Part shown: piece by piece, positions 10,594 to 47,895 of the stretch | Layout of the letters: each line of letters begins with the position of its first letter | Position numbering within the stretch: position 1 is the stretch's first letter | Source: a virus | Strand: one strand, 5' to 3' | DNA length: 64,000 bases | Virus record (IMG/VR): IMGVR_UViG_3300037424_000479 | Notes under the pieces: generated by a model | Seen by the model: the letters and a program-made list of their open reading frames with translations, nothing else | Told to the model about the DNA's origin: nothing | The model's database searches: none | Made by a program: the position numbers and the translations under genes

Positions 10594-10708
10594 CTTACCG
10601 CCTTTCTTATATATCCAGAGACAAGATGAACCTGCATCTCAAGTCCAATAGTGATAGCCTCAACACCGGATTTCAGTGCCACAGTTCCCGCATATTGATA
10701 GAGGATGG

Positions 10709-10737
10709 ACAATACTAAGTAAAGTCAAAGAAGTCAA
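10709..10737 (-). promoter_or_regulatory. Sigma70-like promoter for putative initiator
   Basis: TTGACT-17 nt-TATTGT on minus strand. Confidence 0.5.
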
Positions 10738-10896
10738 GTACCCCCATGAGTTATTCTGATAGTCTATACAACGGTATACTTACAACTTGAGTTGTAGGTA
10801 TTATTCTGACAACCTCGCACACGTATGCGGAGTCATTCTTACCAACACCTATCAAACATTAGGTAGCCTTATGAAAGTTCATAAGGTAGGATACAC

Positions 10897-11129
10897 TCAC
10901 GCCTTATATAGCATGAGTCACATTGATCTTAGCTGTAATAGCGTATAACTCATGCCTTATATGGCATACATACCCTATAACCCACTGTAACTCATACCGC
11001 ATATAGCAGGATAATGCATCTCTTTTAGGTGAGGATACTGTTCAATCATGCCTCATAAGGCAGGATAATAGTGTATTCAAGCCAAAAAAGGCATGAGAGT
11101 GCCCTGGAATCATGCCGGAAAAGGCTCCT
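10897..11129. repeat. Array of six degenerate palindromes TCATGCC-N6-GGCATGA (iteron/operator-like)
   Basis: Copies start at 10897, 10950, 10992, 11046, 11077, 11110. Confidence 0.8.
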
Positions 11130-11174
11130 ATATAATATATAAAATATAAGAGTAAGAGAAAAGAGAATATAAGA

Positions 11175-11310
11175 AATATAGGACTTCACTTCGTTCAGTC
11201 GATACACTCACTTCGTTCGTGCATCTCCTTTACTTCGTTCGCCTATATTGAGAATGGGCAGTCGTGATACGACTACCTCACTTCGTTCGGTAGCCTTTAT
11301 CACTATGCCC
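11175..11310. repeat. Hairpin cluster with repeated T(C/T)ACTTCGTTC loop
   Basis: Motif at 11186, 11208, 11230, 11278; three copies are closed by different stems. Confidence 0.8.
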
Positions 11311-11457
11311 TAAAACCATATGTTAAATATATTGGCTAATGTAGTCTAATGTATTATATATACATTCATGTTATATTTCACCTAGTACATCTCTTATAGT
11401 ATTCACCTAGATTTGAAAACATTAACCCAAATAACTGGCGGCCCCGCCCGCTCCCGC

Positions 11458-11487
11458 TTGACAAGGGTACTCTAAATCCTATATAGT
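11458..11487 (+). promoter_or_regulatory. Sigma70-like promoter
   Basis: TTGACA-18 nt-TATAGT upstream of 11607. Confidence 0.55.
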
Positions 11488-11606
11488 GCATATCGCTCAC
11501 AAGGGGCTTTCAAACAGCTAGTCCTAGTACACGGACGCTTTTCGCTACAAAATGCGTTGGTGACAATCCTAGGGCCTATAGCGTCGATTTTAAGAAGGAG
11601 TCTACC

Positions 11607-13174: not shown

Positions 13175-13822
13175 ATGGATATAACAGACAAAGAGATAGA
13201 AGAGGATGTACAGAAGGAGATACAGGAATTTTTACCGGGATATGATAACGCCCTGGTAAAAGACCTGTCCTTAAAGCCAGTTGAGATAAGTTTCATTTAC
13301 TATTACGTCGAAGCGAATTTCAACGAGGGTGAGGCGTATCAGAAGGCGTACCAGTATAGCGATAAGTACAAGGCCAAGTACTACGCCAAGAAGCTACTCA
13401 AGCGCCCCGATATACAGGATGGGCTCAATCGTATCCTTGGGGAAGTGTGGAGGGAATCGGTACGGAAGCTTCCCCATCAAGTCATGGAGTCCTATCAGCG
13501 GGTGCTGAACCTTGATGTTAGCGATTATTATGATGACGATGGAATGGCAATACCGCTATCTAGCATCTCCAAGGAGAAGCGTTCTCTCATAGGGAATGTG
13601 CAGTATGTGATGAACAGTAAGACCGGGGCGGTATACATCCAGTATGACCTCCCGGATAAGAAAGATTCCCTTGCGGCGCTATTCTCTCTCATCAAGCTAC
13701 ATAAGGAACTGATAGGGGATGACGGTAAGGACGAGAACGCAGAGGCTTCTAAGAAGCGTAATGAGATATTCAATTCGGTGGATGATGTAGAGATGAAGCC
13801 TGTAGAGGCTATAGAAGGATAG
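13175..13822 (+). CDS. terS: Terminase small subunit
   Basis: FIYYYVEANFNEGEAYQKAY...AKKLLKRPDIQ HTH; DLPDKKDSLAAL segment. Confidence 0.8.
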   Translation: MDITDKEIEEDVQKEIQEFLPGYDNALVKDLSLKPVEISFIYYYVEANFNEGEAYQKAYQYSDKYKAKYYAKKLLKRPDIQDGLNRILGEVWRESVRKLPHQVMESYQRVLNLDVSDYYDDDGMAIPLSSISKEKRSLIGNVQYVMNSKTGAVYIQYDLPDKKDSLAALFSLIKLHKELIGDDGKDENAEASKKRNEIFNSVDDVEMKPVEAIEG

Positions 13823-15160: not shown

Positions 15161-15727
15161 ATGGAAGATAAGCAGAAGATTGAGGAGAAGCTACAGAAGG
15201 CTAAGGTGAAGGCGCGTGAGGCACAGCAGGAGATCACGTCACTCAAGAAGGAGCTATCTAAGAAGGATATCCCTGCTATCAAGCCGGAAGACCTGATAGG
15301 TAAGCTGTGCATGATAACTGAGGGAGGTATATCTCACGTAAAGGTGGTGCGTGGGTACAGGGATGGTAGATTCTTAGTAGATGCCATTATGCAATATGTG
15401 AGTGAGGGTGGGCGGCGGACAGAGCTGTCCCCTGTAGACAGCGCGCGCCCCCTGTCTGTAGAAGAGATAGAGACCATGACATACCATGCGTCGAAGCCTG
15501 TAATGTGGGACTGGGAAGCCATTCGGAAGGTATACCCATGGGCTGCTGTGGCTGTGATGAATAAGGGCGGGTCATGCCATATTGCTCGGGCTACTATAGT
15601 AGAGCCTTTAGGAGAATGGTGGTATCGAAAGGATGGGAAGGGTCATTCCTGGAGCGAGATACCCAGTAAATACCTATTGGAGCGTCCTGACAATTGGAAG
15701 GACAGCGTTGAATACTATAAGGATTAA
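15161..15727 (+). CDS. Hypothetical protein with C-terminal Trp-rich phage domain
   Basis: WDWEAI...YPWAAVAVMNKGG...NWKDSV, paralogous to 22200 and 22584. Confidence 0.7.
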   Translation: MEDKQKIEEKLQKAKVKAREAQQEITSLKKELSKKDIPAIKPEDLIGKLCMITEGGISHVKVVRGYRDGRFLVDAIMQYVSEGGRRTELSPVDSARPLSVEEIETMTYHASKPVMWDWEAIRKVYPWAAVAVMNKGGSCHIARATIVEPLGEWWYRKDGKGHSWSEIPSKYLLERPDNWKDSVEYYKD

Positions 15728-15747
15728 CACAGTATACTAGTGCATTA

Positions 15748-15773
15748 GCCTGCCCTTTGTGGCGGGTTTTTTT
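15748..15773 (+). terminator. Rho-independent terminator
   Basis: GCCTGCC-CTTTGT-GGCGGGT then T run. Confidence 0.8.
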
Positions 15774-15799
15774 ATACCCAAATTTGCACAATCGCAATT

Positions 15800-16330
15800 T
15801 AATGCACGGGTGAGAGAATCGGACGGGTGAGAGAAAAATAATAAAAAGATAATGTAAGAAGTTAATAAAAATAAATAAGAATAAATAAAATGTTAATAAA
15901 AATAAATAAAAAATACAAAAGTAAAATGATACATAATTCTTTATATAGAAAGTAATTGATATTTGATTTTGAATGGGGATTATTTAATTAAATAAAAAAA
16001 GAATTAAATAAATACAAAAACAATGAAGTAATAAAGTAGTAACAAATCGATAAAAAGATAAAGAATATATAACAAAAAAAGAGATAAGATATAATAACAA
16101 ATTGATCGAAATTTGATTTTCCTGGGGAGACAAAATTGATTAAATGGTAAAGAATATATAAGTAAAATATAAAAGAGAATAAGAAGAGAAGGATAATAAG
16201 TGATAAAAATATAAAGAAAAGAATATATAATAGGGAATAATTTATAACAGAAGGGGTAAATAATAAAAAATATTATGGGATAAAAATAGGGGAGACATAA
16301 AATAAAAAACGATAAAAATTTATTATATTT
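15800..16330. other. Non-coding, A-rich, almost C-free block with short direct repeats
   Basis: ACGGGTGAGAGAA x2; GTTAATAAAAATAAATAA x2; no ORFs. Confidence 0.8.
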
Positions 16331-16556
16331 ATTTGTTTCGCGCGTATGTATAAAAAGTGTACTTGTTTCCCTACCCTGTCTGTTTAATATAAGTAAGTAA
16401 GAATAGGATTATCTGAATGTTTGATAGAAGATATATTCAATAGAAGCTATATAGTGGAATCCATACTGTTATATAATTATGTCATATAATAATTATTTAC
16501 ATAATTTAATTATATAATCTAATTACATAGAAATATAGCCTATCGGCGCTTCAAAG

Positions 16557-16652
16557 TTATCCACAGGCAAATTGTGTATAACCTGTTAATATGTGTAAAA
16601 GTACCGTAACTTGTGGATAAAGTCAAGGGAGTTGTGTATAACTTGTGGATAA
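16557..16652. promoter_or_regulatory. Cluster of five DnaA boxes
   Basis: TTATCCACA 16557; TGTGTATAA 16573 and 16633; TGTGGATAA 16612 and 16644; all match TTWTNCACA. Confidence 0.85.
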
Positions 16653-16725
16653 TCTAAATTTGATTGAAATCTTCTATATATACAATAAATTTCGCGCCGA
16701 ACTATCTAGAATAAAAATAAAACGC

Positions 16726-16754
16726 TTGACACTATGGGACGCTATCATTACTAT
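16726..16754 (+). promoter_or_regulatory. Early sigma70-like promoter
   Basis: TTGACA-17 nt-TACTAT; similar promoters near 18327 and 20092. Confidence 0.65.
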
Positions 16755-16784
16755 AGACTTATCTTACGTATAGGAGAGTACACA

Positions 16785-17357
16785 ATGGACGTATCTAAAT
16801 TGGCAACGTTAGGAAGTACGATCGCGATATGGCCGCTACCTAATCCGGCTATGGCCTCCGCGTCCAGGGAATTGGCGCGCCAGTATAGCGACGATGAAAT
16901 AGCACTGGACGCTATTTTAGAACGCCTTACTATATCCGTTACATGTATCGGCGTAGAAACGAGAGACGGCGTTAAGGAGCGGAATTTACGCTATAATGTA
17001 TCGGTCACCTATAATAATAAAACGATAACATTCGAATTCGGTACATCGATAGCGGATACGTCAATTCTACTCGATCGAAGAGTATTGACATTCTACGGAA
17101 AGGAGAAATATAAAGAGCTCAGTTCTAGCGGCTACGGCGCGGCCGTCCGTAAAATCATGGTAGATTGGTTATATAGTGTACTGTGTTGTATGCGTTCCGA
17201 TAGCTATATACCGGAGGAATTCGAAGATTTCTGTTCAGAATTCGGATACGATACCGATAGTAGAAAAGCGGAAACTACGCATAGGGCTTGTATAGCGCAG
17301 TCTCGCAAAATTCATTCGCTTTTTACCGATAGCGAACTAGCCTCTTTCCCGTCGTAA
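16785..17357 (+). CDS. Conserved phage early-region hypothetical protein
   Basis: FEDFCSEFGYDTDSRKA motif; start trimmed to MDVSK after AGGAG. Confidence 0.8.
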   Translation: MDVSKLATLGSTIAIWPLPNPAMASASRELARQYSDDEIALDAILERLTISVTCIGVETRDGVKERNLRYNVSVTYNNKTITFEFGTSIADTSILLDRRVLTFYGKEKYKELSSSGYGAAVRKIMVDWLYSVLCCMRSDSYIPEEFEDFCSEFGYDTDSRKAETTHRACIAQSRKIHSLFTDSELASFPS

Positions 17358-17374
17358 AGAAAGGAGGCACTAAC

Positions 17375-17608
17375 ATGCGATCGATAAAATTCGGCAACTA
17401 TGAATTTAAAATACATAAACGCGCCACGGAAAAGATGCGGTATATAGAAATTCCGATATATAGCCTAGAGATTAAAACGCTAGGCCATTATCCGTTATTC
17501 ATCTATGATATAACATGCAATAAAACGTATACACTCGCCGCTGGCCTGAATAAAGACGAGGCCGATAGGATGCTAGCAGAATTAAAAGCGCTAGCATGGT
17601 CAGAATAA
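17375..17608 (+). CDS. Hypothetical protein
   Basis: SD AAGGAGG. Confidence 0.7.
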   Translation: MRSIKFGNYEFKIHKRATEKMRYIEIPIYSLEIKTLGHYPLFIYDITCNKTYTLAAGLNKDEADRMLAELKALAWSE

Positions 17609-17615
17609 AGGAGGC

Positions 17616-17852
17616 GTGAAAATGAATGGCGATATCATATATCAGTATACGGATATAAAGAATTCACATATTATTATAGCAATCGGAACGCTTGAAAATT
17701 GCTATAATGGTATATATAGCCTAGTCGTATCGATTGATAACGTGAACAAACCTAAACATAAATTGTTCGCAGTCGATAATCAGGAAGCGCTAGACATGAT
17801 AGCCGATATTATGCTAGAATATCTCGATGAATTCGAAAGGGAGGTTATATAA
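17616..17852 (+). CDS. Hypothetical protein
   Basis: SD AAGGAGG. Confidence 0.65.
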   Translation: MKMNGDIIYQYTDIKNSHIIIAIGTLENCYNGIYSLVVSIDNVNKPKHKLFAVDNQEALDMIADIMLEYLDEFEREVI

Positions 17853-18259
17853 TGAAAGTCTACCAAGAAATCGCGCAAGCTATCCGCGTCATCAAAGGGA
17901 AAGGAAAAATGGCCGAGGCATGGGAATGCTATCTTGACGATATTATGGAGAATTGTCTTCCTCGCGGTTCCGGTATTGATAATGGAAATTCTATCAATAT
18001 CGAGCGATCGAATAGTGAACGGATAGTAATAGAATCCGGGTATCATTGTATGAATGGTAACGGATATTACTGCGGATGGTATGAATATACTGTTATAATC
18101 ACGCCGTCCCTACAATTCAAATTTGATATGAAGATAAAAGGGAGAAATGGTAGCCGAGATACTATTGATGTAAGAGATAATCTATACGATCGCTATAGAT
18201 TCGCGTTGAGTAGTGACATAGGCGACGAGACTAGGCTACTACTCGCACAATATCTATAA
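17852..18259 (+). CDS. Conserved phage early-region hypothetical protein
   Basis: LPRGSGIDNG...HCMNGNGYYCGW...VIITPSL motif. Confidence 0.8.
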   Translation: MKVYQEIAQAIRVIKGKGKMAEAWECYLDDIMENCLPRGSGIDNGNSINIERSNSERIVIESGYHCMNGNGYYCGWYEYTVIITPSLQFKFDMKIKGRNGSRDTIDVRDNLYDRYRFALSSDIGDETRLLLAQYL

Positions 18260-18283
18260 TACTATACGCTTGTGCAGTATATC

Positions 18284-18317
18284 AGGGTCGAATTCTAGTG
18301 AATTCGACCCTTTTTTT
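18284..18317 (+). terminator. Rho-independent terminator
   Basis: AGGGTCGAATTC-TAGT-GAATTCGACCCT plus T run. Confidence 0.85.
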
Positions 18318-18377
18318 ATTATAGACTGGACTTGTTTTATATTATGTAGTATACTCTCTAATAAGGAGATTATAGAT

Positions 18378-18524
18378 ATGAATACGACATTAGACGACGC
18401 TTGCAAGGCACTACGGCACGCCATGGTACTTTCCGGCTCTATGGATTCTAATGACGTACAAAAAAAGCAAAAAATATACAATAAAGGAAAGACTCTTTTA
18501 GTCGTACGAGGGTCAAAAAAATGA
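18378..18524 (+). CDS. Hypothetical protein, 48 aa
   Basis: Start trimmed to MNTTLDD after AAGGAG; promoter TGGACT-17-TATACT upstream. Confidence 0.6.
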   Translation: MNTTLDDACKALRHAMVLSGSMDSNDVQKKQKIYNKGKTLLVVRGSKK

Positions 18525-18706
18525 TGATCAAAAAAACGTCGAAATTCTGGTATTATACCTATATACTGGACAATGTAACATATTACGGAATCCATATAGT
18601 CGGTCAAATTTTTAGACTATGCGGCGTCGAAGATTATCGTATATATGAAAAAATGTATACTACTTATTTTCCTTCCATTATTATAAACCGAGGGCGACGC
18701 GCATGA
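18521..18706 (+). CDS. Hypothetical protein
   Basis: Start/stop overlaps on both sides. Confidence 0.55.
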   Translation: MMIKKTSKFWYYTYILDNVTYYGIHIVGQIFRLCGVEDYRIYEKMYTTYFPSIIINRGRRA

Positions 18707-18858
18707 AAGCGGGCAAATTCTCTATTGTTGACCAAAAAGGTATGATTCTATTTACTGGCGATAATGCTAAAAAACTAAACAAGATACTACCGAATTTATG
18801 TATAGACGGAACGGCGCGTCTAGTGTATACTAGGCTATCAAATTCGAGGAAGGTTTAA
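18703..18858 (+). CDS. Hypothetical protein, 51 aa
   Basis: Manual translation MKAGKFSIVDQKG...; ATGA overlap. Confidence 0.5.
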   Translation: MKAGKFSIVDQKGMILFTGDNAKKLNKILPNLCIDGTARLVYTRLSNSRKV

Positions 18859-18860
18859 CT

Positions 18861-19448
18861 ATGCGTGAAATTACCACGGTTACGAAGGTGTACGAATTCG
18901 ACGAATTGGGCAAGAAAGCGCAAGAAAAGGCGCTAGCCGAGCTACACTATATAAACGTCGATTATGAGTGGCATGCTAATAGCATTGGCGATTTCATAAC
19001 CATTCTAGATAATATCGGCGTCGATACGTTGAAGGAAAATCTTCAGTTTTCTGGCTTTTCATCACAAGGCGACGGCCTGAGCTTTACCGGGTATTATTAC
19101 TATTGCAAAGGCGCGTTAGCATGGATAAAAAGCGAATGGCCTAAATGGACGGCGCTCCACAATGCCGTACTATCCTTACAAGAGATTCAACGAAAGCATT
19201 TTTATAGGATATCAGGTAATATAGTACGATATAATCATCGTTATTCTCATTCTAAAACGGTAGAATTCGAAGGTAGCGACTATAGTGAAGAAATCGAGCG
19301 AGAAATAACGGATATACTGCGCGATATCATGGATGCATTCTATAGGCAGTTAGACGAGGAGTACGATTATTTCACTAGCGACGAGTGCATAAAGGAGAGT
19401 ATATTCGCTAACGGATATGAATTCACTATAGAAGGGAAGATGATATGA
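18861..19448 (+). CDS. Conserved mobile-element protein (FSGFxSQGDG family), candidate anti-defence protein
   Basis: VYEFDEL...AQEKAL; FSGFSSQGDG; YRQLDEEYDYFTSDE...NGYEFT. Confidence 0.75.
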   Translation: MREITTVTKVYEFDELGKKAQEKALAELHYINVDYEWHANSIGDFITILDNIGVDTLKENLQFSGFSSQGDGLSFTGYYYYCKGALAWIKSEWPKWTALHNAVLSLQEIQRKHFYRISGNIVRYNHRYSHSKTVEFEGSDYSEEIEREITDILRDIMDAFYRQLDEEYDYFTSDECIKESIFANGYEFTIEGKMI

Positions 19449-19744
19449 TGACAACACAATATTCATATATAAAGGATATGTGTACTCATACACCTAAAGA
19501 AATAAAGAAATTCTATACTCGATATCGTAAGACTGATATTATGATGCTAACGCCGTACGCGCTCGCTTGCGGATATAAAGACGCATACATCAACGGCGCG
19601 TATAGTGTCACGGTATCCGGTATAGCGCCGTATAGAGTAGATATGCTATATAAAGATGATATTATATCATGTTATACTTTCTACTCGAAAAGAATTTCGG
19701 ATATACGAAAAAAGCAAATTCTTTATATCTTGATGATACGATAG
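19445..19744 (+). CDS. Hypothetical protein
   Basis: ATGA overlap. Confidence 0.6.
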   Translation: MMTTQYSYIKDMCTHTPKEIKKFYTRYRKTDIMMLTPYALACGYKDAYINGAYSVTVSGIAPYRVDMLYKDDIISCYTFYSKRISDIRKKQILYILMIR

Positions 19745-19758
19745 GGAGGAACAAGAAC

Positions 19759-20094
19759 ATGAAAGAATTCACCATATTAGACGCGGATAGAGCCGATATC
19801 TATTTTCTATTTGATCCTGAGGACATTCCGGCTCATATCGGCGCTTGTGATGATGATATCGCGGAATTCTACGATCGTCATCATGATATCATCGATACGA
19901 TACCGATAGCCTCGATAAAATCGGCCATAAAACAAATGGGAGCTTTCACGCCTGAAGAATTGGAGGAAAAAAGCGAGCGTTCATCAAGGGAATTCGCTTT
20001 ATGGCTCGCCGCGAATGATGCACTAGAGAATCGAGACAATGCCGAACAGATAGACGAATTCGGCCGTGTTGGTGCTAATCTATCGACGTACTAG
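19759..20094 (+). CDS. Conserved phage early-region hypothetical protein
   Basis: GACDDDIA...GAFTPEEL...LWLAANDALE; start trimmed after GGAGG. Confidence 0.7.
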   Translation: MKEFTILDADRADIYFLFDPEDIPAHIGACDDDIAEFYDRHHDIIDTIPIASIKSAIKQMGAFTPEELEEKSERSSREFALWLAANDALENRDNAEQIDEFGRVGANLSTY

Positions 20095-20141
20095 ACTAAT
20101 CTAGGATATTGTAGTATATTATACGTAAGGAGAGCAAAGCA

Positions 20142-20285
20142 ATGAAGGTAGTCAAGAGCATCAAGGATATCGAGGAAAATCTCGATTTCTACGCGACCCT
20201 CGATACGATACCGATACCGCTATCAAAGGTAGTCAAGTATCGCCGCAAGGGACATCGCCGTAACTATATAAGGGAAAGGAGCTAA
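20142..20285 (+). CDS. Hypothetical protein, 47 aa
   Basis: Promoter TAGACT-17-TATATT and SD AAGGAG upstream. Confidence 0.5.
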   Translation: MKVVKSIKDIEENLDFYATLDTIPIPLSKVVKYRRKGHRRNYIRERS

Positions 20286-20287
20286 TC

Positions 20288-20596
20288 ATGGCGCTCATAA
20301 TCGATCCAGGTCGTATTCGCCGTCAGTATCCAAGGCAGTCTAGCGCACAACCTATCGTAGCCGATTTCTACAATAATGGTATCGTAAGGGTACATTATAA
20401 CCCCGAGGTAGGAAACGCCGTACCATGCGACGTTGTTGAGCGCCTAACGCTCACTAAGGTACATACAAAAAAAGACGCCCAGGCATGGTATCGAAAGTAC
20501 AAATTCTATATCGAGGATATTCTCACCAAAATTAAACACGGCGAGAAATTCGGTGGCGAAATAATGGCATTAGACTATAAAAGTAATGTGATATGA
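20288..20596 (+). CDS. Hypothetical protein
   Basis: SD AAGGAG. Confidence 0.65.
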   Translation: MALIIDPGRIRRQYPRQSSAQPIVADFYNNGIVRVHYNPEVGNAVPCDVVERLTLTKVHTKKDAQAWYRKYKFYIEDILTKIKHGEKFGGEIMALDYKSNVI

Positions 20597-20895
20597 AAGT
20601 ATCCCTTTGTCTTCTACGTAGTAAAAAATTCGGTTCTTGTATTAGTACTACTGTTCAAAGTTTTAAACATAGGTATACGTCAACGAAGATTATAGAATTT
20701 AATCAACGTAAAGATATAAAACATTTAGATGGTAAAGTTTATAATTATAGTCAATCCGCCTATGCCGATCGCATATTCAACGAATTGCACGCGCTTTGGA
20801 TATCGCTAGAGTCTCTATGTATAGAATACCAGCAAGGCGATGATAGCGCATGCGATAGGATCAAAGCATACATTAAGGATATAGATATACGATAG
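20593..20895 (+). CDS. Hypothetical protein
   Basis: ATGA overlap. Confidence 0.55.
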   Translation: MKVSLCLLRSKKFGSCISTTVQSFKHRYTSTKIIEFNQRKDIKHLDGKVYNYSQSAYADRIFNELHALWISLESLCIEYQQGDDSACDRIKAYIKDIDIR

Positions 20896-20907
20896 GAGTA
20901 ATATAGT

Positions 20908-21171
20908 ATGATAGTATCCAAGACGGTATATGAGACTAATGACGGTATAGCGCACGCCACGTATAGGGACGCCACTGCATACATAGAAGATAAAGTACAA
21001 TCCGAGATTGATTGGATGCTAAAGCCCGCGTCCCTATCATCACATAGAGATATAATCACAGTAGTAACGTTTTTAGCCGGAGATATAAATAAGATTAAGC
21101 ATTTATACGATATATTAGGTACATGGCTACGTGGTATAGATAGCGCCGATATAGAGGAGGATACCGAGTAG
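20908..21171 (+). CDS. Hypothetical protein
   Basis: SD AGGAG; followed by terminator. Confidence 0.65.
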   Translation: MIVSKTVYETNDGIAHATYRDATAYIEDKVQSEIDWMLKPASLSSHRDIITVVTFLAGDINKIKHLYDILGTWLRGIDSADIEEDTE

Positions 21172-21196
21172 ACAGTATCCACAATATCTATATAGG

Positions 21197-21227
21197 TACC
21201 CTAGATTTAGTTCTAGGGTATTTTTTT
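21197..21227 (+). terminator. Rho-independent terminator ending the early block
   Basis: TACCCTAGA-TTTAGT-TCTAGGGTA plus T run. Confidence 0.85.
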
Positions 21228-21299
21228 GTATAATACTATTATGATATCAAAGTAATATCATAGGATAGGGAATTCATGCCAGTAAGGTGCAATCCTCTA

Positions 21300-22130
21300 G
21301 TATAATTCATATAGAAGCTAGTGAAGACAGTATATACAGTATATACAGTGGTAGTATATAGAGAAGTAGTAAGAATATGTAGAGTATAGAATATAATATA
21401 TAATAGAGAGGATATATAGTGCCTAACTTACTCTATACCTTTCTATTTTACTCACCTTATACACTTTCTACCTTATAAACTGCCTATATATACCCATATC
21501 TCCCATATAATGCCTTCTATTCTATTTATTTCACCTATATAGTCCCATATCCTCCATACTACCCTATATACTCACATTCCCTACACTATTCTCTATTATA
21601 TAGCCTTTATTCCTATGTATTCCCCATTATTCTCTCTATATACATAATACCGCCAATATACGTACATAGTCCATTATATAAGCGCTATTCTGTTTATCCC
21701 TATATATATCCCTATACTGTACTCTATATGAACTATCCTATGTTATACACTATATATACTGTACAATGCCACTATATAGGGCCGTGGTAGCATGGTAGGG
21801 AGTATAGATAGATGCTATGGGATTGTTTCATTGCGTGCGATGGTGAGATAGGGCGATGGTATAGCGTTGATATATATGATAGGGGAATGGAAAGAGGGGG
21901 GAGGGTATGCCCCTTGGCTACCCCACTGTCCCGTCTGCTCCGTATCGATCTAGTTTGAAACGCATATAGGGGTCTTTTTTCCTATACTGTTCTTTATCTC
22001 CTCTATATACCAAATTCACTCTACATTGTTTCCTATACCTGTATCTCCCAGTCTTTATGCTGTTTTTCACATATAGAATTCCCCCATACCCCTAAATACT
22101 CACTCTAAATTTTTCCAATTTTTTGCTCTT
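21300..22130. other. Non-coding low-complexity block with alternating G/C strand skew and CCTATA/CCATAT-like repeats
   Basis: 5 C in 21301-21420; 7 G in 21421-21660 (hand counts); no ORFs. Confidence 0.8.
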
Positions 22131-22199
22131 ATAGGGGTTGACGCTCAGATTTAATTATAGTACCTTCTATTCATCATACAGCGCATATAGGAGGTTTAT

Positions 22200-22583
22200 A
22201 TGATGATGATGATTCTAGGGTCTATAGAGATTGTTCTTCTGGCGGTGATTCTACTGGCGGTGATGGAGATATTCGCTTATATGAAGTCGTCACCGATTAC
22301 CCTATCGGTAAAGGATTATGAGGTAAAATTCAGGCCGCCCCAGCATTACGTGGATTGGACTCTGATACCTACGAGATATCGATGGGTGGCGATGGACGAA
22401 AATGGTGAGATATGGGGCTATAGTGGAGAAGCACCAAAGATAGATGAAGGGGATAATTACTGGTCTATTAACCTCAATACCGATCATATACAGATGGGTG
22501 ATAATGTAACCAATTCCTCTGCTATTCTCTTCACCCCGATGAATTGGCGTACATCGCTTATAGAGCGACCGGAGGGTATGTAA
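22200..22583 (+). CDS. Membrane-anchored hypothetical protein with Trp-rich phage domain
   Basis: N-terminal TM; VDWTLIP..YRWVAMDENG...WRTSLIERP. Confidence 0.75.
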   Translation: MMMMILGSIEIVLLAVILLAVMEIFAYMKSSPITLSVKDYEVKFRPPQHYVDWTLIPTRYRWVAMDENGEIWGYSGEAPKIDEGDNYWSINLNTDHIQMGDNVTNSSAILFTPMNWRTSLIERPEGM

Positions 22584-26319: not shown

Positions 26320-26378
26320 TTGACAAATTCAACAGAGCCCCCATATAATATAGGGATAAACCTATATATGGGGGCTCT
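26320..26378 (+). promoter_or_regulatory. terL promoter overlapped by a 14-bp perfect inverted repeat
   Basis: TTGACA-18-TATAAT; AGAGCCCCCATATA (26334) / TATATGGGGGCTCT (26365). Confidence 0.75.
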
Positions 26379-27692
26379 ATGCGTTATTCTTGGGATATGA
26401 TAAAGAAAATTAGACAGTGGCCACATCTTCTTGGCAAGTTGGCGGGTAAAGATTTACTTACCCCACTGCATAGTGAATGGATTAAATATGTATGGGGACC
26501 AGAAGGTGCAGAAATTCCCCGTACCCTTATGGGACATCGTGGTAGCTATAAGACTACGGCTATTACCGAGATAGGTCCTATCTGGTATCTTGCTTTTAAC
26601 CCCGAGAGGCGTATAGCTGTAATCCGCAAAACCTTTACCGAGTCGGCTGAGGTGCTTCGTAACATATCAAACATCTGTATGCTGGAAGAGGTGCATGACT
26701 TCCTAGGGTTTGTATGGGGTGATCCTAACTGGACGTTCACTACTCGTAAAGCGGGTAAGATTGAATTCTCGGTGAAGCACAGTAAAACGAAAGAGGGAAA
26801 CCTCACCGCCTATGGACTCGACTCTAGTATGACGGGAAGTCACTTTACAGATGTATTAGGAGACGACTGCGAAACCATCATAGATCGTATATCTTCCGCA
26901 GAACGTGAAAAAACTAAGATGATTATGACGGAAGTGCGTACAAACATCCTTGATCCGGGTGGACGCTTCCGTGTAATAGGTACCCCCTGGGCTAAAGATG
27001 GTTTATTCTCTATTCTTCCCCCCGCTCGTAAATATCCTGTTGGTGTTACAGGACTTCTTACCGATGAACAGATAAAGATAAAGCGTGATTCTCAGCCCGC
27101 TCTTCTTTATGCGGTAAACTATGAGTTGGAATTCCAGAACGACGAAGATAACCTCTTCAATGATCCTCACATGGGTATATGGGATTTTACTGCGCGTACA
27201 GATGCTGTAGCTCATCTCGATGCCGCTTATGGAGGTAAAGATACTAATGCTCTTACTATTATGAAGCCCCTCCCTGATAATCGTATAAATGCTGTGGGCT
27301 TCCTGTACCAAGGACACGTAAAAGATTTCATCCCACAAATAGTAGACAAGATGAAATATTATAGAGCCTCTAAATTGTTTATGGAAAATAACTCGGATCG
27401 TGGATTCTCCCTGGAAGCTATTACATCTAATCCTGTTGCTGTAGAGGCTGGTATATGGCCTAAGTCCTATGCCGAATCTATGCAGAAGGAAATGAAGATA
27501 TCTAAATATTTATACGAGGGATGGAAAAGAATACAGTGGGCGAATGAAACAGATATGAATTATCTTGAACAAATTATAGATTGGACAGTTGAAGCAGATG
27601 TTCTCGACGATTCTGCAGATTCTGCGTCTTCCCTTCTTAGAGAGGCGGGTTTCGTAAAGACCCGAAACGTTCGAGACCTCTATCGTTGGTAA
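26379..27692 (+). CDS. terL: Terminase large subunit
   Basis: MGHRGSYKTT Walker A-like; VLGDD Walker B; IGTPW motif III; HLDAAYGG and DDSADS nuclease acidic residues. Confidence 0.93.
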   Translation: MRYSWDMIKKIRQWPHLLGKLAGKDLLTPLHSEWIKYVWGPEGAEIPRTLMGHRGSYKTTAITEIGPIWYLAFNPERRIAVIRKTFTESAEVLRNISNICMLEEVHDFLGFVWGDPNWTFTTRKAGKIEFSVKHSKTKEGNLTAYGLDSSMTGSHFTDVLGDDCETIIDRISSAEREKTKMIMTEVRTNILDPGGRFRVIGTPWAKDGLFSILPPARKYPVGVTGLLTDEQIKIKRDSQPALLYAVNYELEFQNDEDNLFNDPHMGIWDFTARTDAVAHLDAAYGGKDTNALTIMKPLPDNRINAVGFLYQGHVKDFIPQIVDKMKYYRASKLFMENNSDRGFSLEAITSNPVAVEAGIWPKSYAESMQKEMKISKYLYEGWKRIQWANETDMNYLEQIIDWTVEADVLDDSADSASSLLREAGFVKTRNVRDLYRW

Positions 27693-27785: not shown

Positions 27786-29207
27786 ATGGGACAACTAGGC
27801 CGACCCAGGAAAGATGCTGTCAAAGCTGTAATCGCTACACCTACTCCTCTTCCTAACTATAGTCATTTTAAGTCCGATAGTTGGAGCAACGCTCTTACAG
27901 GACTTAATCTAAAACAGGATAAGTCTCAATATACCAAGTACGGTTCCGCTTATATCCTTGACGACGGCACCCTTGCAGAGATGTACGTAGGAGATGGGTT
28001 AGCTTCTCGTATAGTGGATATTATAGCTGATGATATGACCCGTGAGTGGGTATCCCTTGAAGGCCCCCATGCAGACAAGATACTCAAGGATATGGCCGCG
28101 CTGGATGCCGAAGAAAAATTCAATACTGCTATACGCTGGCAGAGGCTTTTCGGTGGAGCTATAATGATTATAGGTGCCATGGATAGTAGAACCCCTGATC
28201 AGCCTCTTGATGAAAAGAATATAAAGGGTATTGAGTACCTCCGCGTGCTTGACCGTACCGCAGTAGAAATCGTAAGTAGTGAATTTGACATGAATCCCAT
28301 GCACTCTACTTTCGGGCAGATAATTCGCTATCATCTTCGCTTTAAGGTTAACACTGAGATTGTGGAAATGAAAATTCACCATACCAGAGTAATCCCCTTT
28401 ATGAACGATCCTATACCTAATAAGCTTTCTGACTATTTTACTCAGGATACTCGCTATTGGGGTATGTCATCTATACAACGTATATATGAAGGTGTGCGCG
28501 ATCTAGGTGGTGTAAGCCAGTCCATAGTGAATATCCTCTATGAGTTCATGCTTGGAACGTATAAATTTGAAGGGCTTGCTGAACTGCTTGCCTCTACCCC
28601 CGATAAAGACGGCAAGAGCGGTGCCTCCCTTTTAGCTGAGCGCCTTAATGCTATCAATACTTCAAAGTCTGTATTGAATGGCATCGTCCTTGATAAAGAA
28701 GAAGATTATTCTCGTCAGTTCGCTACCCTGGCAGGCCTTCCTGAAATTATGGACAGGTTCATGCTCAATCTTTCAGGTTCTACCTCTATTCCCGTTACTC
28801 GCCTATTCGGTCGTTCTCCTGCCGGTCTTAATGCTACTGGCGAGAATGACCTCCGCAACTACTATGACCTTATCGAAGCCAACCAGCGCAACAGGCTCCT
28901 CCCTGCCATACAGCGGATTGTCTCTTTCATACAGTTATGGCGTAAATACAAAGGTGAAGTTGAAGTAACTTTCAATTCTTTATACCAGATGACGGAAAAA
29001 GAGATTGTAGAAGTAACTAAGATCGAGACCGAGACTGAACAGATAAAGGCTAATATGGCGATTAACTTCTGTAAGAATGGTATACGTGATCCTGCTGAAG
29101 TATCGAGGGAATATGGATATGAGCCTCCTGAAGATGTCATCCCTCCCGATGCGGAACCTTTACCTGAAGAGGAAGAGGTAGGAGAGGAAGAGGCTGAGGA
29201 GAAATAA
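27786..29207 (+). CDS. Portal protein (DUF1073/HI1409-like)
   Basis: RIVDIIADDMTREW; WQRLFGGA; IPVTRLFGRSPAGLNATGENDLRNYYD. Confidence 0.93.
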   Translation: MGQLGRPRKDAVKAVIATPTPLPNYSHFKSDSWSNALTGLNLKQDKSQYTKYGSAYILDDGTLAEMYVGDGLASRIVDIIADDMTREWVSLEGPHADKILKDMAALDAEEKFNTAIRWQRLFGGAIMIIGAMDSRTPDQPLDEKNIKGIEYLRVLDRTAVEIVSSEFDMNPMHSTFGQIIRYHLRFKVNTEIVEMKIHHTRVIPFMNDPIPNKLSDYFTQDTRYWGMSSIQRIYEGVRDLGGVSQSIVNILYEFMLGTYKFEGLAELLASTPDKDGKSGASLLAERLNAINTSKSVLNGIVLDKEEDYSRQFATLAGLPEIMDRFMLNLSGSTSIPVTRLFGRSPAGLNATGENDLRNYYDLIEANQRNRLLPAIQRIVSFIQLWRKYKGEVEVTFNSLYQMTEKEIVEVTKIETETEQIKANMAINFCKNGIRDPAEVSREYGYEPPEDVIPPDAEPLPEEEEVGEEEAEEK

Positions 29208-30184: not shown

Positions 30185-30352
30185 ATGGAATGTTCAAAAG
30201 AGCTATTACGAGAAATACAGACAGCGGTTGAAGGGGTCGAATATGGTAGTGTCGAAATCACACTAGCAGAGAAAGGCCCATTCGTTGAAATTATAGTTAA
30301 GAATAAGAAACGTATCCAAAAAGAAGAGATACAAGAATATCACAGGGGCTAG
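30185..30352 (+). CDS. DUF2292/YezD-like small protein, 55 aa
   Basis: Manual translation ...AVEGVEYGSVEITLAEKGPFVEIIVKNKKRI; SD AGGAG. Confidence 0.6.
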   Translation: MECSKELLREIQTAVEGVEYGSVEITLAEKGPFVEIIVKNKKRIQKEEIQEYHRG

Positions 30353-30367
30353 TCCCTCTTGACAAAA
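30346..30367 (+). promoter_or_regulatory. Late promoter element, copy 1 of 22-bp repeat
   Basis: GGGCTAGTCCCTCTTGACAAAA, identical at 35523. Confidence 0.75.
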
Positions 30368-30425
30368 CATGGTGTATATGTTACATAAAGTATACATATA
30401 ATTTAGCATATATAGGAGGGCTCCT

Positions 30426-35522: not shown

Positions 35523-35544
35523 GGGCTAGTCCCTCTTGACAAAA
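35523..35544 (+). promoter_or_regulatory. Late promoter element, copy 2 of 22-bp repeat
   Basis: Identical to 30346-30367. Confidence 0.75.
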
Positions 35545-35614
35545 TAGGACTTATACTATATAGATATAAGTATATGTTATAAGCATATAGACAACACGAC
35601 ATAGGAGGGATATC

Positions 35615-46842: not shown

Positions 46843-46907
46843 AGGTACCCCTAGACAAAAATATAACATTATGTATAATAAAGGTACCTCTATATATGGG
46901 GTACCTT
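46843..46907 (+). promoter_or_regulatory. Promoter with GGTACC-based inverted repeats
   Basis: TAGACA-16-TATAAT; AGGTACCCC (46843) / GGGGTACCT (46898); hairpin 46881-46907. Confidence 0.55.
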
Positions 46908-46932: not shown

Positions 46933-47895
46933 ATGCCTGTCGGAAAAACGAGAGTAACAGAAGTAATCGATTATGCGATGCTACATGGGGATAATGAGGC
47001 GGCTACCACATTCGGAATATCGCTGGGAGGAATAGAGCGATATAGGCGTAAATATAAAGAGATATACGGTGAGAGTGCCGATCTTGTTATGGCACTAAAG
47101 AAACAACTTACCGATGTAGAGCTGAAGATGATGCTTAATACGAGTAAGCGGCGTCCAGTTGTTACAGAAAGTAACCCTGTATCTATTGAAGGGGATCGAA
47201 TCAAATTCGGTGTTATAACGGATACGCATATAGGACATAAGGAATTTATACCCGAGTATCTTCGTACTGCGTTTGATATTATAAATAACTTTGGGGCTCA
47301 ATTTACGTTTCATGCAGGTGATGTAGTTGAAGGACTTATGAATCGCCCTGGGCATTTCTTTGAGTGTTCTCATTATGGATATAAAGCTCAAAGGGATGAA
47401 AGTGTTGCTCAGTTATCTTATTATAATAAGCCCCTATATGTTATCAACGGTAACCATGACGCGAGCATCAATAGCAAGTTGGGGGTAGGTATAGATATCG
47501 TAGAAGATATATGTGAGCGCATACCCAACGCTATATACCTTCCTGGTGATCCTGCTGATATTGAGATTAACGGAATTCGTTTTAGACTCTTCCATGGAAG
47601 GGATCGTGGTGGTTCCTACGCAAAGTCGTTTAGACCACAAAAGATACTGGATAGTTTCGGTATAGATATCCCGGACGTGCTTATGATAGGCCATGCTCAT
47701 TCAGCAGACTATTGTAAGTATAAAGGATGCCACCTAATCGATGGTGGGTGCATACAGCGTCTTACAGATTTTCAACGCGGCAATAAACTATCTGCTGATG
47801 TTGGATTCTGGACGGTAGATATGACGGTGCGAAACGGGAAGATCATAGCTATCTCCCCTACATTCTATGATCTAGAGGAGGTTATGAATGGCTAA
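46933..47895 (+). CDS. Calcineurin-like metallophosphoesterase with N-terminal HTH
   Basis: TDTHIG, HAGDVVEG, GNHD, HG, GHAH motifs. Confidence 0.9.
   Translation: MPVGKTRVTEVIDYAMLHGDNEAATTFGISLGGIERYRRKYKEIYGESADLVMALKKQLTDVELKMMLNTSKRRPVVTESNPVSIEGDRIKFGVITDTHIGHKEFIPEYLRTAFDIINNFGAQFTFHAGDVVEGLMNRPGHFFECSHYGYKAQRDESVAQLSYYNKPLYVINGNHDASINSKLGVGIDIVEDICERIPNAIYLPGDPADIEINGIRFRLFHGRDRGGSYAKSFRPQKILDSFGIDIPDVLMIGHAHSADYCKYKGCHLIDGGCIQRLTDFQRGNKLSADVGFWTVDMTVRNGKIIAISPTFYDLEEVMNG

Follow-up and report, generated by a model that had tools for sequence, protein, structure and literature searches.

The phage recorded as IMGVR_UViG_3300037424_000479 is an uncultivated virus of sediment metagenomes, and the window discussed here is a 64-kb stretch (64,000 nucleotides) of its lytic genome. 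The window has no nucleotide similarity, near or distant, to any deposited phage. Between the terminase genes terS and terL lies a block of 14 small genes, all on the + strand (16786-21171), that is bounded on either side by nearly a kilobase of non-coding DNA. This block, referred to below as the cassette, carries promoters and terminators of its own, and its composition, found nowhere else in the window, sets it off as an island with sharp edges. It is a genuine and unusual structure, and a conserved one.

Architecture of the Cassette and Its Flanks

A first-pass annotation had described 14 small genes between terS and terL, with three sigma70 promoters and two strong terminators, set between two flanks free of open reading frames (ORFs). 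The gene block and the flanks are borne out: when all six frames of the whole 64-kb window are searched for stretches of at least 350 bp without an ORF of at least 50 aa, only 15798-16733 and 21183-21917 are recovered. Once small spurious ORFs are discarded, the non-coding blocks run from 15769 to 16725 (block A) and from 21224 to 22199 (block B). Both strong terminators are present, each with a 12-bp stem. Two of the three promoters, at 16726 and 18327, were recovered; the third is doubtful, the site at 17791 lying inside g3 and the TTGACG at 22138 being without a well-spaced -10 element. The starts of g1, g5, and g10 were corrected by their ribosome-binding sites (RBS), and that of g1 was set at 16786 because the longer ORF, from 16734, would begin within its own promoter. 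The features of the locus are as follows (lines without a sign carry no strand).

15747-15768, +: intrinsic terminator; 8-bp stem with 5 GC pairs, T run
15769-16725: block A, left non-coding flank; about 0.96 kb, GC 0.18-0.31
15830-16315, +: A-rich, purine-rich low-complexity stretch; about 490 bp, GC near 0.2, degenerate tandem units of 10-34 nt
16318-16380: short GC-containing patch, TTGTTTCGCGCG...GTGTACTTGTTTCC
16440-16535: near-pure A+T stretch; about 95 bp, with 3.2 copies of a 13-nt unit (16489-16529)
16500-21200: compositional island; CpG observed/expected (o/e) 1.6-2.0, TpA 1.2-1.4, CA/TG 0.70, no palindrome avoidance
16557-16652, one + and five -: array of six predicted DnaA boxes (TTWTNCACA matches)
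16726-16754, +: promoter P1, TTGACA-17-TACTAT; opens the cassette
16786-18259, +: operon 1, g1-g4
16786-17357, +: g1, 190 aa; RBS-supported ATG; phrog_4273
17375-17608, +: g2, operon 1
17616-17852, +: g3, operon 1
17852-18259, +: g4, operon 1
18284-18311, +: internal terminator, 12-bp stem; with P2 divides the cassette into two operons
18327-18355, +: promoter P2, TGGACT-17-TATACT
18380-21171, +: operon 2, g5-g14
18380-18526, +: g5, operon 2
18521-18706, +: g6, operon 2
18703-18858, +: g7, operon 2
18861-19448, +: g8, 195 aa; phrog_5162, a plasmid and phage family labelled 'antitoxin'
19445-19744, +: g9, 99 aa; conserved in the lineage of relative G002
19759-20094, +: g10, operon 2
20142-20285, +: g11, operon 2
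20288-20596, +: g12, operon 2
20593-20895, +: g13, operon 2
20908-21171, +: g14, operon 2
21194-21223, +: closing terminator of the cassette, 12-bp stem
21224-22199: block B, right non-coding flank; TpA o/e 1.6-1.8, CpG o/e 0.5-0.6

The terminator at 15747 closes the preceding operon, which encodes a NinG-like protein, terS, a helix-turn-helix protein, a transglutaminase-like protease, and a 188-aa protein. Several elements of block A recur in G002 (IMGVR_UViG_3300027719_000003), a 73.6-kb relative whose terL is 47% identical. The left flank of the G002 cassette is likewise AT-rich and A-rich, with a shorter counterpart of the A-rich stretch; in alignment the GC patch is partly conserved as GTTTGATGCACACGCGCG...GGTGTACTGGTTCC, and the context of the P1 -35 hexamer (CGCTTGACAC) is also conserved. 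The near-pure A+T stretch at 16440-16535 resembles a DNA-unwinding element. The DnaA boxes next to it are spaced 16-21 bp apart from start to start, apart from one 11-bp tandem pair, and the array ends 75 bp before the P1 -35 hexamer. Six of the nine matches in the window fall within these 96 bp, and 4.6 matches are expected across 64 kb.

Block B is of another kind. It contains 20 of the window's 102 TATATA words and degenerate CCTATATA..CCCATAT repeats, and its strands alternate between purine-rich and pyrimidine-rich segments, with a G-rich patch at 21770-21910. There is no fold signal that would mark block B as structured RNA (z = -0.06), and the helical periodicity of A-tracts and TATA in the flanks is a weak signal.

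The Compositional Island

From about 16.5 to 21.2 kb the CpG o/e ratio is 1.6-2.0, against 0.5-1.1 on either side, and the edges are sharp. All four self-complementary dinucleotides are over-represented in the cassette, with symmetrised abundances of 1.72 for CG, 1.28 for TA, 1.35 for AT, and 1.28 for GC, and with CA/TG at 0.70. Karlin's delta* between the cassette and the backbone is 201-209, compared with 22-51 among backbone regions and a maximum of 71 over 18 backbone pieces of the same 4.4-kb size; a value of about 205 is at the level typical between unrelated genomes. GGGG, CCCC, CTG/CAG, and GCTG are 3- to 100-fold rarer in the cassette than in neighbouring + strand genes, and since this depletion is symmetric between the strands, the bias acts at the level of DNA. 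The cassette contains 297 CpGs, the majority at codon junctions, compared with 235 +/- 6.6 after shuffling of synonymous codons, so the excess goes beyond what amino-acid and codon usage would give.

Palindromic hexamers number 106-108 per 4.4 kb of cassette and 30-65 in backbone windows. Palindrome enrichment as such was rejected as a feature, because the dinucleotide bias accounts for it: relative to a first-order Markov model the cassette has z = -1.0, whereas the other regions tested lie between -3.0 and -3.7. What sets the cassette apart is thus the missing avoidance of restriction-type palindromes that is seen elsewhere in the window.

In L050 and L052 (IMGVR_UViG_3300028832_000793 and _000152), whose terL proteins are about 39% identical to that of the window, the median CpG o/e is about 0.05 over 18-21 kb, a near-total avoidance of CpG, and in L023 and L030 the ratio is about 0.3.

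Conservation in Relatives

In the G002 genome a cassette of about 10 small genes, running from a promoter to a terminator, lies 4 kb upstream of the terS-terL pair. This cassette has a CpG ratio of 1.59 and a TpA ratio of 1.37, and its delta* is 80 to the cassette of the window and about 190 to its own backbone. It includes a homologue of g9 that is 42% identical. Two further contigs of the G002 lineage, from other samples, repeat the order of low-GC flank, CpG-rich cassette, and TpA-rich, CpG-poor flank, and L010, another relative with a terL identity of 47%, has a smaller island around a homologue of g10. The appearance of the island in independent assemblies argues against a chimera. A word-based search for g9 homologues returned only g9 itself, and the metagenome scan yielded no additional lineage.

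A shared signature and a homologous gene at this degree of terL divergence indicate that the module and its signature are old and have not been ameliorated, and an old, maintained module argues against recent foreign insertion. The position of the terminase genes relative to each other varies: among the terL relatives the terS-terL distance is 0 kb in G002, 5.3 kb in G003, 12.6 kb in the window, and about 14 kb in G001. Within the G002 lineage the cassette is 86% identical and terS-terL 96% identical (14% against 4% diverged), so the cassette evolves faster.

Gene Content and the g8 Family

Two cassette proteins belong to recognised families. The first, g1, matches phrog_4273, a family of unknown function. 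The second, g8, has a predicted model with a pLDDT of 94.8 and belongs to a family common to phages and plasmids, with 99 plasmid records that are mostly alphaproteobacterial. In the one record of the 99 that was inspected, a conjugative plasmid of type MOBP/MPF_T, the g8 homologue lies between a gene for an ArdC-like zincin and one for a single-stranded DNA-binding protein (SSB), with DUF2493 also nearby. Another homologue is found inside the 18.4-kb terminal repeat of Caulobacter phage CcrPW, and in an unrelated lytic SU10-like contig a third stands fourth in the first operon, behind 1.1 kb of non-coding DNA and a strong promoter. These contexts fit a gene that acts on entry. The label 'RNA polymerase binding protein' on a homologue in an Acinetobacter phage was ignored, as the names in that record are plainly unreliable.

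Comparison with T5 and Other Entry Regions

The left terminal repeat of phage T5 has three untranslated repeat regions and an injection stop signal (iss) whose DnaA boxes have been described as 'reminiscent of oriC'; that DnaA mediates the stop is an untested hypothesis from a preprint. The coding part of this repeat (NC_005859, 1-10219) proves to be a compositional island too, with rho* of 1.36 for CpG and 1.57 for GpC against 0.75 and 1.09 in the backbone. Its delta* from the backbone is 186-192, and the T5 backbone differs internally by 27. The island stops at 9.5-10 kb, in exact agreement with the iss and the boundary of the repeat. A limited literature search found no paper on the T5 repeat as a CpG/GpC-rich island. 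When the shift is expressed as a vector (module minus its own backbone), the correlation is r = 0.78 between the window and T5 and 0.94 between the window and G002. The CcrPW repeat is shifted as well, with a delta* of 161; in the SPO1 repeat (60) and in the early region of T7 (61-70) there is hardly any shift.

The likeness to T5 extends to anatomy. Both phages have a cluster of small genes under host-type promoters, and the cassette, with P1 and P2, is insulated by the terminators at 15747, 18284, and 21194. Both have a cluster of DnaA boxes in a large untranslated region at the boundary (six boxes within 0.96 kb here, where a pause role is predicted only), and both are sharply bounded CpG-rich islands, the T5 repeat lying at a delta* of about 190 from its own backbone. 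The cassette and its flanks make up 8.1% of a 79.03-kb genome, the T5 repeat 8.4%. The two differ in that the cassette has an excess of TpA and ApT as well and does not avoid palindromes (z = -1.0), whereas avoidance in the T5 repeat is the strongest among the T5 regions tested (z = -5.7). The virion and replication genes of the two phages are unrelated, the DnaA boxes of this phage are not conserved among its relatives, and no homologue of A1, A2, or dmp was found among the cassette proteins scanned against Pfam, PHROG, and NCBIfam (g5 and g11 not scanned).

The leading regions of conjugative plasmids are the first DNA to enter and carry genes for anti-defence and establishment, ArdC and SSB among them. 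Like the cassette, they are groups of small genes believed to work as soon as they are inside the cell. The family of g8 is found beside an ArdC-like zincin and an SSB on a conjugative alphaproteobacterial plasmid; only one of the 14 cassette genes is shared, however, and leading regions enter single-stranded. The SPO1 host-takeover module and phiCbK-type repeats such as that of CcrPW also hold dense small early genes within long terminal repeats. The CcrPW repeat is similar in two respects, its g8 homologue and its shifted composition, whereas the SPO1 repeat is not a compositional island and no homology to SPO1 genes was detected. Block A on its own invites comparison with oriC-type, DnaA-dependent origins, in which phased consensus DnaA boxes also stand next to an AT-rich stretch with 13-nt repeats, but here the array sits in a phage with its own replisome genes.

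Genome Ends and Read Depth

The corresponding Logan contig is 79,063 bp long, with uniform contig depth and a 30-nt overlap between its two ends, and is therefore taken as a circular assembly of about 79,033 bp. An assembly of this kind would result from a collapsed repeat and from permuted ends alike. Per-contig k-mer depth in sample X2 rises near 18.5 kb, from about 2 on the left to about 4-5, a level kept as far as at least 28.5 kb; at this contig-level resolution and 2-5x coverage there is no doubling confined to 15.8-22.2 kb. The X2 contig from block B (21284-22073) has a k-mer depth of 11.9, and its neighbours 3.5-5.3. Mixed strains, an element that is conserved or present in several copies, or artefacts of low complexity could account for these differences in depth. 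Prediction of the packaging mode from the terminase was set aside, as the nearest characterised terL proteins (Lactococcus Q33/BM13 and Enterococcus phiFL) are 33-35% identical and too distant, and a literature search yielded nothing of use.

Contigs from samples X2 and X3 match the window up to 15628, 16492/16525, and 23679 and then continue with unlike sequence for 43-255 nt. The positions of these breaks suggest mosaic or recombination joints around the module in related strains. Runs X4 and X5, with small shares of the stretch, did not enter the analysis.

The direct terminal repeat (DTR) flags that IMG/VR gives to relatives are not real repeats: they stem from assembly overlaps (127 and 74 nt) or, in G001, from a 12-nt tandem array. 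This array, (CTAGGGCAGAGC)n, belongs to a 75-kb relative (L002 4700-4890; L003 1-110; the ends of G001). It occupies a non-coding gap of 800 bp within the terS-terL interval, 5.2 kb ahead of terL, at a position that matches block B, and is a break point of contigs from at least three samples.

Interpretation and Alternative Explanations

The reading preferred here, with a probability of roughly 55%, sees in the block a cassette of early genes, conserved and self-contained, in a lytic phage of about 79 kb; its task would most likely be host takeover or anti-defence. The role proposed in the first-pass annotation is thus supported circumstantially, by the cassette's own transcription unit, its unique composition shifted in the direction of T5, the contexts of g8, and its faster divergence. 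Several results weigh against this reading. Twelve of the 14 cassette proteins are without a family match in the databases scanned, the g8 model has no fold match in the PDB or among Swiss-Prot models, and the plasmid label of its family, 'antitoxin of toxin-antitoxin stability system', is an automatic annotation. Sigma-70-like promoters occur outside the block as well, with a perfect one ahead of terL (26320), and their overall count equals the shuffled expectation. Because such promoters also stand before late genes such as terL, promoter type cannot date the cassette. No cluster of DnaA boxes is present in the homologous left flanks of G002, L106, and L107. Host mimicry did not explain the island in the T5 counterpart and was rejected there as a cause, the repeat being no closer to E. 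coli than the backbone is (only 30 kb of E. coli was sampled).

In such an early cassette, host RNA polymerase would transcribe two units from P1 and P2, with terminators insulating both sides. Expression would probably be early and the function anti-defence, and the sequence regime, with its excess of CpG, TpA, ApT, and GpC and its lack of restriction-site avoidance, would differ from that of the backbone. The left flank may be a regulatory or origin-like region in which an A-rich stretch, an AT-rich stretch of unwinding type, and six phased boxes precede P1. Host DnaA probably binds there, and the host initiator would in this way be tied to expression of the cassette, to unwinding of the local DNA, or to DNA entry. 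The right flank may be a TATA-rich spacer. Since the boxes are lineage-specific and a strong promoter follows 75 bp downstream, they could equally well serve in regulation or in the titration of DnaA.

The annotation had gone further, placing the physical genome ends at this locus and reading the flanks as cut sites or an injection-pause signal; these roles of the flanks are only an analogy. In its full form this explanation makes all or most of the 6.4-kb segment a long direct terminal repeat of T5 type that enters first, has its ends in the flanks, and uses the DnaA array as an injection stop. The T5 repeat does share the anatomy of small pre-early genes, large untranslated repeat regions, and boxes at the iss; it is a CpG-rich island ending at that signal, with a shift that correlates with the cassette's; and the fraction of the genome is similar. 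The g8 homologue inside the CcrPW terminal repeat and a circular assembly, as expected from a collapsed repeat, are also in its favour. The island property in common with T5 and the DnaA boxes lend it genuine, if circumstantial, support. It is nevertheless judged unlikely. The X2 depth rises at 18.5 kb and stays raised to 28.5 kb, with no doubling confined to the block (weak evidence at this low coverage), A1, A2, and dmp homologues were not found in the cassette proteins scanned, palindromes are not avoided as they are in the T5 repeat, and the homologous flank of relatives is without DnaA boxes. The DnaA stop is conjectural even in T5, and the SPO1 repeat has no such island. More doubtful still is the broader proposal of T5-like staged entry in an unrelated environmental phage family, in which a first-entering, possibly terminally repeated cassette of about 6 kb would be held at a DnaA-box array and a CpG-rich signature would be a general, computable hallmark of first-step-transfer DNA. 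If that were true, sequence by itself would suffice to locate such modules in metagenomic phages.

An overlapping alternative, for block A alone, is a replication origin that depends on host DnaA and is activated by transcription from P1, with the cassette merely an adjoining operon and block B an unrelated spacer. Six phased boxes adjoining an A+T stretch of about 95 bp with 13-nt repeats reproduce the oriC layout, and the phage encodes a primase, a clamp loader, and UvsX and gp32-like proteins of its own; the 470-aa gene proposed as an initiator matched no Pfam family. This explanation too is improbable: the boxes are missing in relatives that retain the rest of the flank, the region of iterons and palindromes at 10594-11606 is no worse a candidate for the origin, and both the island and block B are left unexplained. 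By far the least probable account is a recent acquisition from a foreign source, with the island a moron or mobile cassette that owes its odd composition simply to the donor. A delta* of about 205, typical of unrelated genomes, would fit such an origin, as would the range of 0-14 kb in the terS-terL interval and the possible mosaic joints at 15628, 16492/16525, and 23679. The same signature is found, however, together with a homologous gene, at a terL identity of 47%, with the cassette protein similarly diverged (42%), and no integrase, transposase, or flanking direct repeats were found.

If the cassette is indeed an early or first-entering module, its 14 mostly orphan genes would be prime candidates for new host-takeover and anti-defence functions, and g8 would link phage early regions with plasmid leading regions. 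The signature differs from its own genome by as much as separates unrelated organisms, and it is kept across relatives with a terL identity of 47%; the shift shared with T5 suggests that the DNA (or RNA) of very early phage genes is subject to a constraint so far unrecognised. Compositional shift may offer a cheap route to early modules that needs nothing but sequence, and through the DnaA-box array a direct connection of a phage early region with the initiator of host replication can be put to the test.

Other Features of the Window

The remaining genes of the window are arranged in arms. Genes for replication and recombination, a set in the style of T4, occupy the - strand arms (1-10.6 kb and 50-64 kb) and encode an SNF2 helicase, a primase, a UvsX-like RecA, a gp32-like SSB, a clamp-loader ATPase, an SbcCD-like nuclease, and ThyX. 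The + strand arm (11.6-48.6 kb) comprises terS, the cassette block, further small genes, terL, portal, head, and tail. Scans for tRNAs and against Rfam gave no match in the window, and no Chi or KOPS-type skewed words were found. The terminase and portal assignments are listed below; the sole Pfam hit of terL is below threshold.

13175-13822, +: terS; Pfam Terminase_2, E=7e-13
26379-27692, +: terL; directly upstream of portal, tblastn hits on large terminases annotated in phages, up to E=1e-58
27786-29207, +: portal, after terL

A third non-coding region of about 1 kb lies between the divergent gene arms at 10594-11606 and is a candidate origin or regulatory hub; it contains TCATGCC..GGCATGA palindromes and four copies of CACTTCGTTCG. 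The promoter before terL (26320-26378) is a perfect TTGACA-18-TATAAT followed by an inverted repeat in the 5' untranslated region, CCCCCATATA..TATATGGGGG, and a similar element at 46852-46901 stands ahead of the gene at 46933. Within the structural arm, a 33-nt element (GGGCTAGTCCCTCTTGACAAAA...) that includes the -35 hexamer TTGACA is repeated at 30346-30378 and 35523-35555, the two copies being 85% identical.

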